A DNA stretch of 64,000 nt from an uncultured Rivularia sp. Lineage in GTDB: Bacteria; Cyanobacteriota; Cyanobacteriia; Cyanobacteriales; Nostocaceae. Position numbers and translations under genes: made by a program. The notes below the pieces were generated by a model. That model worked only from the letters and a program-made list of their open reading frames with translations, was not told the DNA's origin and ran no database searches. Below, piece by piece: positions 8,142 to 50,124 of the stretch. The stretch spans positions 1,536,001 through 1,600,000 of the forward strand of contig OY762007.1 of assembly GCA_963665115.1 (NCBI GenBank), given 5' to 3'. Positions within the stretch are counted from its first letter, which is position 1, and each line of letters begins with the position of its first letter.

Positions 8142-8155
8142 TAGACTTTTGTCGA
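8142..8155 (-). promoter_or_regulatory. TAGAC-N4-GTCTA operator candidate upstream of the sheath/tube operon
   Basis: TAGACTTTTGTCGA; a -10-like TATTCT lies 25 bp downstream on the minus strand (8116-8111). Confidence 0.6.
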
Positions 8156-8619
8156 GATTTAAAACAATTTTATTTAAACGTAAATCGATTTTCAAAGATA
8201 ATTTTTACTGTTAATTAGATTAAGCAATAAAAAAGTAGTATGTAATTCTATACAAAATTTTATCGAACGCCACGATTTTTGTGATTAGAAAAACTTTGAA
8301 CCTATTTTCAATTTGTAAAAAAAACTACATAGCTTGCTAAATGATGAATAAGCTTTAATTGATGAAACCTATATATTAATATAAGCTTCCGAGAAATAAA
8401 GGTAGGTAAAAATGCTGTATAGCAAAACAAATCTGAAATATCTAACTTCAGATAGATTGCAAAAATATTTATTTAATTATCAAAGGCAATATTATTGTTG
8501 CCCAACCTAAGTGCATAACTTCAGTCTGCTTTCCCCTATTTAATCCTAAGCTTAATTAGTCAGCTAACTGATTAAATTTGCTTTGTAGAATCATGCGAAG
8601 GATAAATACTAAAATTATT

Positions 8620-8761
8620 GGCGTTGCTGAATACAGATATGAATTCCTAATTGGTATCTAACAACAGCCCCCTAAATCCCCCAATATTGGGGGACTTAAA
8701 AATCAATTTCTCCCCCAGATTTGGGGGTTGGGGGGCTATTTATATTTTGATTAAGCAACAC
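8620..8761. repeat. Dispersed MITE-like repeat family (GGCGTTGCTG...CAGCAACGCC ends), copy 1
   Basis: Core CCCCCTAAATCCCCCAAT..TGGGGGACTT; six full copies in the window. Confidence 0.75.
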
Positions 8762-8937
8762 TAAATTATTCACCAAAATTGTCCAATAAAATAATTTGGA
8801 ATCAAAATTATGGTTTGTCTTATAAAAGCAGACCCTACGATAAATGCTGTAATAGACAACAACCAAGCCTCTTATATATCGCGGCTTTCAAGAGATAATC
8901 GCAATACATTTTGCATTCACTATCCGAGGGTAAAGCA

Positions 8938-10047
8938 ATGGTTTTAAATATCTCTTTGAAACAACAGAAACACCCAAATTTGGGTAACTTTAGTTTAAAA
9001 AAATTCTGTTGTTTGCATATAAAGCAATTAACTTTTCATCATCAAATTGATTGCGCTCGCATAGTATATTACGATCCAAATTTAACAAAACACCAGGAAG
9101 TTGTTGATTACACCCAAAGCAAATTTCGATATTCTCCCCTAAATTTAGCTTATTTAAGGTCAGAATCTTGGATGGATAACTATCCTCACGTTTTTGATAT
9201 TCATGAGTTTCAACTTCTCGAACTACCAAACCATCATTGTTATGTTTGTATCATCGGATATAAAAACCATCGACCTGAATATATTCAAATTATTACTAGT
9301 GAAGCAATATCTACCGAATTACAAAATTTCTTGCAAGATTCCGCAAGAATACTCAGCCAATACATAGAAACCTATGCAGAAAATTTATCTCAAAAATCGA
9401 AAATTCAACTACTAGAGCATACAGTCCATAAAGCAAGTCATCAAATACGTAATTATTTATCATTAATAAGTATTTACGCACATAACTTATATTTAAGATT
9501 ACCAGAGAATGATTATTGCCAACAACAAGCAGCAATAATTCATGAAAGCGTACAAAAACTAGATTTTAGCCTTACAGACATATTATCCTGCGGTCAGGGA
9601 GTAAAATTAAACAGAGCTTCTCAAGACTTAAAAGAAATAGTAGCTGAAAGTATCAAGAATTTTCAACCCATAATTTCTCAGAAAAATATAGAAATAAATC
9701 TTCCCGAAATCTCGACAAGATTACTGCTAGATAAATTACAGATTCAACAAGTATTTGATAATTTGATTAGTAATGCGATTCATTTCAGTCCAGAATTCGG
9801 AAAAATAGTTATTAGCTGGCAGATTTTTCAAGAAGAGATTTTAGTTAAAATTTGCGATAGTGGACCGGGAATAGCAGCAGAAGATATTCCAAAAATTTTT
9901 AATCCTTTCTATTCACATCGTCAGGGAGGAACCGGACTTGGTTTAACAATAGCTAAAAAGATTGTATTAGACCATAGTGGAAGTTTATGGGCACAAAATT
10001 CGTCACAAGGAGGTGCAATGTTTTCTATAGTTTTACCAAGAAAATAG
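8938..10047 (+). CDS. Sensor histidine kinase (soluble, HisKA + HATPase)
   Basis: H-box SHQIRNYL, N-box QVFDNLISNAI, DSGPGI, FNPF, GGTGLGL. Confidence 0.9.
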   Translation: MVLNISLKQQKHPNLGNFSLKKFCCLHIKQLTFHHQIDCARIVYYDPNLTKHQEVVDYTQSKFRYSPLNLAYLRSESWMDNYPHVFDIHEFQLLELPNHHCYVCIIGYKNHRPEYIQIITSEAISTELQNFLQDSARILSQYIETYAENLSQKSKIQLLEHTVHKASHQIRNYLSLISIYAHNLYLRLPENDYCQQQAAIIHESVQKLDFSLTDILSCGQGVKLNRASQDLKEIVAESIKNFQPIISQKNIEINLPEISTRLLLDKLQIQQVFDNLISNAIHFSPEFGKIVISWQIFQEEILVKICDSGPGIAAEDIPKIFNPFYSHRQGGTGLGLTIAKKIVLDHSGSLWAQNSSQGGAMFSIVLPRK

Positions 10048-48056: not shown

Positions 48057-48263
48057 AACTTTATCTGTAAATTATCTATTTTCTGAAGGTTATAAGAAAA
48101 GTATTTAGTAATTCAAAATAGAACTTAGAGCTTCACAGGTAATTATCGAGACCTTTGGGTCTAAAACCCCACCTACAAGAAGGCATACTAGTAATTGGTT
48201 AGGGTAAAATACCACCACCAATTACCTCTCCCTCTCTCCCTCACTCCCTCACTCTCTCCCTCT

Positions 48264-49827
48264 TTATTTCCGCTCTTCAGTATCACTTGATGTATTCAAA
48301 GCAGCGATTTTAGATCTATCTATTACTTGAGAATTGTTCAAATCATCTTCTAAGTTTGTACCAAACGAATTACGAGGTTCTTTGAGAAAAAACGCGCACA
48401 AACTTGCACAAATCAATGCAGTTATACCCATCGTATTGAATAAAGCTCGGGTATTACTGAAGTTGTAAACAGTCAAAAAAACTACACCACCGACATTTCC
48501 ATAAGCACCTACGTTACCCGCAATTTGTCCGGTAATTTCTTTTTTTATCAAAGGAACTATGCTAAACGTGGCACCAGCAGCAGCTTGAACGAAGTAAGCA
48601 CAAAATATAGTTGCCATCGTAGCACCTACAACTGTCCAATTTGTATCTATTGCTGCCATCAGTAGATAACCGATGCCAATTCCCACCGTCATCCCTGTCA
48701 TTACCCACTTACGGCTTCCCAATCTATCGGAAATTAATCCACCACTTGGACGAGAAATTAAGTTTAAAAATGGAAAGCTAGCTGCAACAAAACCAGCTTG
48801 AACAATATTTAAATCAAAGGTTTGGGCAAAAAAACTTGGTAATACAGAAATTACCGCAATTTGCGAACCAAAGTTAGTCACATAGGTCAAACTTAGCAAA
48901 GCAATCTGTCGAAACTCGTAGCGTTCTGAGGGTGCAAAGGTTTGTTGACTTTTTAAAAAATCTTCTGCACCAGGATTCAAAGAAACCAATCAATTCTCTA
49001 TTTACTTGCCAAGATTTGTATAGCTGAAATAAATATAATGCAGTTACTGCGATCCAAATAAAAATAACTTGGCTTTCATTCAGAAATTGAATAGAATCTG
49101 AATGCAAAGGAAGTGATAGCAATCCTAAAGACAACAATAATCCCAAATCCATCAGAGTCATTGCAAAAAAACTTCTGCGACTCGTAACTTGCATTGCTCC
49201 GCTACGTTGGGGACGGCGAAATTCTTTTCCGGGTGGTGTGTCTTGAACGTTAAACCAATAGAAAACACCGTAAACCGCACAAACGATACTAATAATACAT
49301 ATTGAAAATCGCCAGTTAACGCTTCCTACTGTGAATGTAGCTGTTGCGACTCCTAACAATGGTAATAACAATTGGGATGCAGCAGCACCGAAATTACCCC
49401 AACCACCATATATTCCTTGAGCAATACCAATTTCTGATGGTGGAAACCATTCCGCTATCATTCGCACTCCAACAACAAAACCCGCACCCATCACACCCAT
49501 CGTCAGACTGCTGTAAACAAGCTGGTCAAAATTAGTTGCAAATCCAGTCATGAAACAGGGAATCATTGCAAATATCAGCACTCCAGCAAAAGTAATTCGC
49601 GCTCCCCAACGGTCTAAAATTATGCCGATTATTATTCTTGCTGGTATCGTCAACGCTAGATTGCAAATCGCAAGAGTTTTCATTTGTTCCGATGTCAAGC
49701 CCAAATCATTTTGAATGGCGATCGCAAATGGTGCAAAGCTAAACCAAACTAAAAATGACAAAAAAAAGGCTATCCAAGTTAAATGTAAAATTTTATTCTT
49801 TAATGAGAGTGAGAATATGCTAGACAT
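48264..49827 (-). CDS. nrtP: NarK/NrtP-family MFS nitrate/nitrite transporter; split by a +1 base near 48983-48985
   Basis: ILHLTWIAFFLSFLVWF, GIYGGWGNFG, SRPSGGLISD, GQIAGNVGAYGNVG. Confidence 0.85.
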
Positions 49828-50110
49828 AATATTTCTTGATAACCCTAATTTGTATAAAAACTAGCCACTAAATAAATTCTTGTATGGAGAATTAGGTAAA
49901 AAAAGGGTTTTCCTATCTTCCATAAGAGGGCTGTATCATTTCCGGTTTTAAAACACTTGCATTCATTTGATTGAGGTGATGCTTATAATGTTTTACTTGG
50001 ATTAAATTATTTCTTAAAGCTTGATTGCTCCTTTCGCTTATTCACAGCAATACCCACCTCAAACTTAAAACAACAAATACATTTTGCTAAATTATTTCCA
50101 AAAATAAAAT

Positions 50111-50124
50111 TAGACTTTAGTCTA
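50111..50124 (-). promoter_or_regulatory. Perfect-arm operator candidate upstream of the transporter-NOS pair
   Basis: The minus strand reads AAAAAAAC-TAGACTAAAGTCTA-ATTTT, the same context as 42200 and 35625. Confidence 0.6.

Follow-up and report, generated by a model that had tools for sequence, protein, structure and literature searches.

The 64,000-nucleotide (nt) window analysed here, part of the single-contig 8.69-Mb genome of a filamentous cyanobacterium (G000), carries the genes of a contractile injection system (CIS) together with a histidine kinase and a NarL/FixJ-type response regulator, whose nearest named relatives are found in Rivularia spp. (92-97% identity). A 14-nt palindrome, TAGAC-N4-GTCTA, recurs between the transcription units of this locus and is probably the binding site of the locus-encoded regulator, which would bind as a dimer and activate separate CIS promoters. 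The recognition of an inverted repeat by a NarL-type dimer is a textbook mechanism. This pairing of operator and regulator had been proposed in a sequence-only reading of the same DNA, and it is supported by the conservation of the sites, their fixed distance from a predicted -10 box and the joint absence of regulator and sites in three lineages.

Nine positions had been listed in that reading, and a palindrome-like 14-mer was found at all nine, in each case in an intergenic region (Table 1). The exact pattern occurs twice in the window against 0.04 expected occurrences, a count reached in 1 of 100 shuffles, and four times in the whole genome including these two, so that the motif is rare and concentrated in the locus rather than frequent without positional bias. 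With up to one mismatch, seven matches stand against 1.28 expected, and none of 100 shuffles contained as many; two of the seven (22244 and 54487), which the sequence-only reading had not claimed, are intragenic. These two and a match at 26682 were rejected as sites, being intragenic and low-ranking. No enrichment was found for two-mismatch matches in the window (20 vs 21.4 expected), and weak sites therefore have to be supported in other ways. The extended context AAAAAAAC-site-AT(A/T)TT, ascribed to three sites, is present at 35625 and 42200 on the + strand and at 50111 on the - strand.

An independent matrix was built from 40 sites of relatives only, and the genome of the window was then ranked with it. 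The sites at 50111 and 42200 tied for ranks 1-2, followed by 8142 (3), 24063 (4) and 15711 (8), while lower ranks were obtained for 35625 (20), 29789 (72), 15742 (508) and 44480 (3351). At a score of at least 11.5, seven intergenic matches lie in the window, compared with at most two in any other 64-kb bin (136 bins). Leave-one-out scoring rated 8142, 15711, 35625, 42200 and 50111 as strong, 29789 and 24063 as moderate, 15742 as weak and 44480 as unsupported. The comparative consensus is T(A/C)GAC(T/A)WW(A/T)GTC(T/G)A, in which T1, C5, G10 and A14 are near-invariant; its condensed form is T(A/C)GACTWWAGTC(T/G)A. Pattern counts over whole genomes did not separate genomes with the regulator from those without it and did not exceed a reversed-pattern control; the signal is local. 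High scorers outside the locus (contig positions 8139288, 8149723, 6964031 and 1134944) have no CIS genes as neighbours and give no sign of a wider regulon. The match at G000:C1:8149723-8149736 is of the same type as 35625 and shares its A-tract flank. TAN3T is found on both sides of it, at 24 and 25 nt, but no open reading frame (ORF) of at least 80 amino acids (aa) starts next to it.

The ranking also changes the assessment of individual sites. The position 24063 had been labelled weak, which its rank contradicts. Conversely, 15742 was demoted as a separate site because it is mostly the predicted -10 box of the promoter at 15711: the spacing described below explains its right part, and its left half is not conserved among relatives. 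The sequence CTTTAGYCTA is nevertheless conserved there in near relatives and may be a secondary half-site. At 44480 the 14-mer is present as listed, but it is degenerate and was demoted on its rank, while its position is kept in 5/6 aligned orthologous regions. The statement that the sites precede CIS units or the transporter-nitric oxide synthase (NOS) pair holds for the CIS units. At 50111, however, the TAN3T spacing faces the kinase pair and only CAAAAT is found on the side of the major facilitator superfamily (MFS) transporter, so that the link to the transporter-NOS pair is positional only.

When sites are oriented to the nearest gene, TAN3T lies at 23-25 nt from the site in 34 among 52 non-redundant sites, 15 of which are orthologous sheath promoters and therefore not independent, while every other offset from 10 to 39 gave 0-3 matches each. 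On the opposite side of the sites, 10 TAN3T matches occur at the same spacing among 65. The spacing is seen in four promoter classes; in a second type of layout, TATAAT lies one turn farther away, at 34 nt. An inverted repeat at a fixed distance from a predicted promoter is a feature of NarL/FixJ operators. Assuming that the -10 box begins at -12, the dyad would be centred at -43.5 or -44.5, an activator position. No such -10 spacing was found at the kinase-regulator operon, which would not be switched in this way.

It is quite improbable that the local regulator represses, or that the palindrome belongs to an alternative-sigma promoter as one of its upstream elements. The site does abut the -35 position, and the -10 boxes of the sheath and tube promoters share the narrow form TAnnCTA, but those of the gp25 and kinase promoters are generic TAN3T and sigma elements are not palindromic. 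Repression or a sigma element would also suit 35625 and the - side of 42200, where the spacing is missing. Against this, the usual position of an activator is a symmetric dyad lying immediately ahead of a weak -35, here TTAACA-like in the sheath promoter. Moreover, Streptomyces needs the related LuxR-type regulator SlpR to produce particles (PMC8505568).

The sites are conserved upstream of orthologues. Throughout the genus and the family, and in other orders as well, the Pvc16-sheath operon is again preceded by the site, in most cases 58-78 nt ahead of the start codon, and orthologous sites also stand ahead of the tube/spike operon and the gp25 and eCIS_core genes. Across 22 non-redundant sheath promoters, invariance amounts to 68-100% in the 14 columns of the site vs mostly 31-60% in the distal flanks. 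G480 and G376 have no Pvc16 gene before the sheath and yet keep regulator and site, and the site is also kept in loci separated from the regulator (G144, G203 and G046). In G021 there is no sheath match, while kinase, regulator and four strong sites are kept. That the repeats are merely relics of duplicated promoter DNA or shared ancestry, selected by no protein, is very improbable: three window sites do share A-tract flanks and a promoter is duplicated in G021, but flanks diverge while site and -10 box stay fixed across families and orders. The tolerated changes preserve the dyad symmetry (A/C at position 2, T/G at 13), and the site is common to four unrelated promoter classes.

In the near-complete G021 genome (L019:8698-13238), it is the sheath-type promoter that is duplicated, and one copy faces a run of SnoaL, SIS, HUMPS-family and GMC-oxidoreductase genes; a metabolic operon may have co-opted the operator there. 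In another stretch (L203, G480:C2:42213-43059), regulator and sheath are immediate divergent neighbours, and a perfect site separates the two.

The co-occurrence of regulator, sheath and site was assessed in a family set of 201 genomes with at least 90% completeness, using E 1e-50 or better for the regulator and E 1e-100 or better for the sheath. The regulator was found in 76 genomes, the sheath in 89 and both in 75, which means that 75/76 regulator-bearing genomes have the sheath. A phylum-wide draw contained the regulator in 13/301. Sheath promoters were scored with a window-only matrix at a threshold of at least 9; two stretches were too short, and G168 was treated apart. The site was found in 32/35 stretches in which the regulator lies alongside, with TAN3T at the 23-25-nt distance in 31 of these, and in 4/5 stretches of the same sheath clade with the regulator elsewhere in the genome. 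Among 24 stretches from regulator-less lineages, one has the site with a -10 box, and there is one further score-only match without a -10 box.

Intergenic densities point in the same direction, with 73 sites in 158 kb (48 regulator-linked stretches, their density inflated by five G032 stretches fetched for their pattern matches) vs 1 in 102 kb (25 regulator-less stretches); these counts exclude G000, the main loci of G003 and G007, and G168. The regulator-less density equals the genomic background of 24 sites in 1,995 kb outside the window. The sheath phylogeny was based on a quick tree and a FastTree tree, both unrooted, the latter with 44 rows after 20 had been excluded as near-duplicates or long branches. 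The regulator-less loci fall into three distinct lineages, interspersed among the regulator-bearing ones, which requires three changes, forced by branches of at least 95 in the FastTree tree. G003 and G007 each contain one locus with regulator and sites and a second locus with neither.

A core-genome regulator acting in trans, either another NarL/GerE protein or a global factor, could instead bind the palindrome, with the local pair as a passenger or target. This is unlikely, since a core factor would be expected in regulator-less genomes too, yet their loci have background site density. The genome does offer candidates with 14 GerE-type helix-turn-helix matches, and a near-identical palindrome, TAGGCTATAGTCTA, is kept in one core intergenic region in 6/6 same-genus stretches regardless of the local regulator. 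This core-locus palindrome, however, has a wholly conserved flank and is without the 23-25-nt spacing. A paralogous NarL gene was rejected as the source of the binder because the palindrome before it, present in G011 and G003, is missing from the other 10 fetched orthologues (at least 95% identity). In the genome of the window, the core-locus palindrome lies at G000:C1:5282409-5282422, in a conserved intergenic region between divergent small genes, which we take to be ndhM and an asr1734-like regulator gene.

Besides the partial dependence among sites in the spacing test, several observations weigh against the local regulator as the activator. The core-locus palindrome occurs in genomes with and without the regulator. 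G168 has sites without a detectable regulator orthologue (1010 contigs, 94% complete), and G214a has a site with a -10 box in a genome without one; both exceptions would suit a factor acting in trans. Conversely, G165, L086 and L088 carry the regulator without a scoring sheath-promoter site. L086 and L088 have only the degenerate GATACAAAAGTCCA, in place and with a -10 box, and the helix start of their regulator is altered (YIKVVTVKAH); L086-L089 have no tube-operon site. G480 lacks a kinase gene beside the regulator. There are only three joint-absence events, a small number, and the regulator-less lineages are also rearranged, so that regulator loss is confounded with promoter replacement. 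Finally, the term "master switch" used in the sequence-only reading has to be qualified, since the locus also holds five Ser/Thr kinase and two FHA genes.

The regulator has the NarL/FixJ architecture, with Response_reg at 45-160 and GerE at 198-252 of the long-start ORF, the acidic pocket D12-D14, the phospho-acceptor Asp D63, which is present in the orthologues compared, the Lys K113 and the helix TVATVKAH. The best solved-structure relatives of the regulator and of its helix-turn-helix are VraR/LiaR, NarL and DevR. Of the 47 scanned window proteins, no other has a DNA-binding domain of the transcription-factor type; the AAA ATPase carries a winged-helix variant domain. The kinase belongs to class I histidine kinases, as shown by His168, invariant in 73 sequences, an HATPase_c domain with conserved ATPase motifs and fold matches at Z 23. 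Its N-terminal domain is predicted to be GAF-like. The model of this domain, with a predicted local distance difference test (pLDDT) score of about 90, has the order helix-2 strands-helix-3 strands-helix, and its Atlas neighbours are mostly GAF clusters with lead-level scores of 0.81-0.85; fold searches were filled by the ATPase domain. A single-sequence fold of the kinase reached a pLDDT of only 39.

A cytoplasmic signal would act on the GAF-like domain of the adjacent kinase, whose His168 would pass phosphate to Asp63 of the regulator. The phosphorylated dimer would place one subunit on each half-site, centred near -43.5/-44.5 next to the poor -35, and the bound regulator would recruit RNA polymerase, so that the sheath/tube, spike, baseplate and accessory operons would rise together. 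Nitric oxide sensing via heme was considered as the input and is not supported because no conserved His was found among the invariant or 90%-conserved columns of sensor residues 1-160 and NOS is confined to a few loci. Among the examined stretches, NOS lies inside the locus only in G000, G003, G007 and G021, and it was found in 1/5 further regulator-bearing genomes, there on another contig. NOS is a lineage add-on.

An association between such regulators and extracellular contractile injection systems (eCIS) is already known from gene neighbourhoods. In the survey of Geller et al. 2021 (PMC8213781), a GerE/LuxR-type regulator adjoins 25.8% of eCIS loci, 9% of those with an upstream histidine kinase, the same neighbourhood as in the window, and such regulators were proposed to control the eCIS operon. 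As far as its accessible text goes, that survey gives no binding site, promoter layout or cyanobacterial regulon, whereas the present analysis defines a putative operator, the distance from it to the -10 box and the joint loss of sites and regulator, in keeping with a cluster-specific NarL-type regulon. The type II CIS of Streptomyces has a cluster-encoded LuxR-type regulator as well (SCO4263/SlpR) and several promoters (PMC8505568, PMC10020575); it depends on bldA through TTA-codon translation, in contrast to the REC-domain regulator with its own kinase in the window.

The similarity to VraR/CesR/LiaR dyads noted in the sequence-only reading holds for the C-N4-G core of the LiaR motif T(X)4C(X)4G(X)4A (PMC7191749), but the nearest published motif in the sources available is the DosR box and not a VraR/CesR site. 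DosR (DevR) of Mycobacterium tuberculosis belongs to the NarL family, has a GAF-type sensor kinase and recognizes the box core GACTWWAGTC, as in the window (PMC2275270, PMC4082495), within the consensus TTSGGGACTWWAGTCCCSAA (PMC2275270). Only this 10-bp core is common, as the DosR box covers 20 bp with the flanks SGG...CCS and the window site 14 bp with outer T(A/C)...(T/G)A. The DosR targets are unrelated to the CIS genes, and in contrast to the heme-binding GAF of DosR/DosS, the window sensor is one small domain without a conserved His, which does not support a heme gas sensor. For LiaR/VraR, the outer spacing differs, and the regulons concern Firmicutes envelope stress (PMC7191749, PMC6612188). 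The shared DosR core and LiaR spacing indicate that the motif is of the kind that the NarL family reads. No description of the operator or of a cyanobacterial CIS regulon was found in the literature, where subscription papers and unread supplements could hold one; a search on the literal site strings returned unrelated animal papers only.

The coordinates of the sites and of the surrounding genes are given in Table 1. According to Pfam searches of 47 ORFs, the CIS genes of the window comprise sheath, three gp19 tubes, CIS_tube, a VgrG-like spike, gp25, baseplate J, Tail_P2_I, AAA ATPase, two Pvc16_N and eCIS_core, and they are accompanied by genes for five Ser/Thr kinases, two FHA proteins, an MFS transporter, NOS, the histidine kinase and the REC-GerE regulator.

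Table 1. Putative operators and transcription units in the window.
Coordinates	Strand	Feature	Remarks
81..8074	-	Predicted operon: Pvc16_N, sheath, two tubes, two small ORFs, FHA, 413-aa ORF	Last-named ORF cut near window edge
8142..8155		Putative operator of Pvc16-sheath-tube operon (-)	67 nt before start at 8074; predicted -10 TATTCT at 8111-8116 (-), 25-nt spacer
8938..10047	+	Histidine kinase, 369 aa	
10095..10769	+	NarL/FixJ-type response regulator (REC + GerE helix-turn-helix), 224 aa	Likely palindrome binder
15711..15724		Putative operator of 78-aa ORF / tube / CIS_tube / VgrG operon	
15742..15755		At most secondary half-site	Contains predicted -10 TAGTCT (15749-15754, 24-nt spacer) of 15711 promoter
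15794..23946	+	Predicted operon: 78-aa ORF, tube, 1599-aa ORF, CIS_tube, VgrG-like spike	
24063..24076		Putative operator of gp25-baseplate J-Tail_P2_I-DUF4159 operon	Predicted -10 TATCTT at 24101-24106
24216..29579	+	Predicted baseplate operon	
29789..29802		Weaker putative operator before kinase-MORN / 456-aa ORF / AAA ATPase	Predicted -10 TAACAT, 23-nt spacer
29905..34688	+	Kinase-MORN, 456-aa ORF, AAA ATPase	
35625..35638		Putative operator 54 nt before 245-aa ORF	Without TAN3T at 23-25 nt
42200..42213		Perfect site between divergent 324-aa ORF (-) and eCIS_core gene (+)	+ side TATAAT, 34-nt spacer
42616..43521	+	eCIS_core domain protein	
44480..44493		Weak site in conserved position, flanked by Pvc16_N gene (-) and Ser/Thr kinase (+)	
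46887..49827	-	Split MFS transporter and NOS oxygenase gene	Lineage-specific neighbours
50111..50124		Perfect site, flanked by MFS-NOS (-) and a pair of Ser/Thr kinase genes (+)	Predicted -10 TAAGAT at 50149-50154, kinase side
50459..53108	+	Pair of Ser/Thr kinase genes	Downstream of 50111

The window sheath matches PDB entries 8BKY/8BL4, which we take to be Streptomyces CIS sheaths, over its full length with E 9e-124, while Anabaena All3325 matches it only over residues 362-545 in the C-terminal part (E 7e-54). Since the sheath is far closer to the former, the system is likely of type II (lineage II, Streptomyces-like) and not the thylakoid-anchored Anabaena CIS. The locus has one Baseplate_J ORF (afp11) and one ORF with Phage_GPD and Phage_base_V (afp8, VgrG), as expected of eCIS subtype IId. 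A single afp11 and a contiguous afp8 are criteria for IId but are common to subtypes Ia and Ib too (PMC6899500). The thylakoid CIS of Anabaena PCC 7120 also comes from a filamentous cyanobacterium and, as in the window, has two Cis16/Pvc16 proteins as well as DUF4157 genes (PMC8894136); its sheath is only a partial match. The string 'regulat' is absent from the main text of that paper, which holds no regulation data.

A connection to a model organism is offered by Nostoc punctiforme. In a preprint (10.1101/2024.09.03.611090), two structural blocks of a 'putative prophage' are co-expressed mid-dark, and the genes between them, with predicted roles in regulation and recombination, are not co-expressed. 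The Npun_F1112 primers for quantitative PCR given there fit the window sheath gene at 6918-6937 and about 6992-7011. The reverse primer has 1 mismatch, while the forward primer has no match within 3 mismatches and shows four synonymous differences by eye. The dark-induced 'prophage' is probably a homologous CIS, and we infer that its expression pattern agrees with structural promoters that are activated separately on either side of a regulator operon, the latter not being induced with them.

A wider picture can be drawn only as a speculation that we consider rather doubtful as a whole. About four in ten Nostocaceae genomes would possess a two-component switch dedicated to a Streptomyces-like intracellular CIS, which it would turn on via the operator. 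The sensor of this switch would be soluble and would respond to a signal possibly linked to dark or redox conditions. The N. punctiforme 'prophage' would be this regulon, and the switch would have been re-used for NOS and metabolic operons after loss of the machine. With the operator, the promoter position and a candidate regulator, the induction of cyanobacterial CIS becomes a question testable in a model Nostoc. This could provide a route to induce quiet type II systems for structural and functional studies, and the operator can serve as a tag for scattered regulon members in rearranged genomes.

Several minor features of the locus were also observed. No RNA holder is listed for the region. 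The MFS gene (48264-49827) consists of two overlapping frames in the window and of a single 501-aa ORF in G021. NOS (46887-48056) is intact in the window; G003 and G007 each have it as two ORFs, with lengths identical between these two genomes. The PBP-like gene that follows the regulator (10815-12984) is represented by a 97-aa and a 657-aa ORF, compared with a single 722-aa ORF in G003 and G007, which is probably a frameshift. The 78-aa ORF at the head of the tube operon (15794-16030) is conserved and has no Pfam/NCBIfam match. A partial copy of part of the AAA ATPase gene lies at 35269-35523 (92% identity over 75 aa), and a dispersed repeat of ~90-120 nt, with dozens of genome copies, occupies several intergenic regions of the locus (about 15560-15650, 8680-8770 and 24110-24230).

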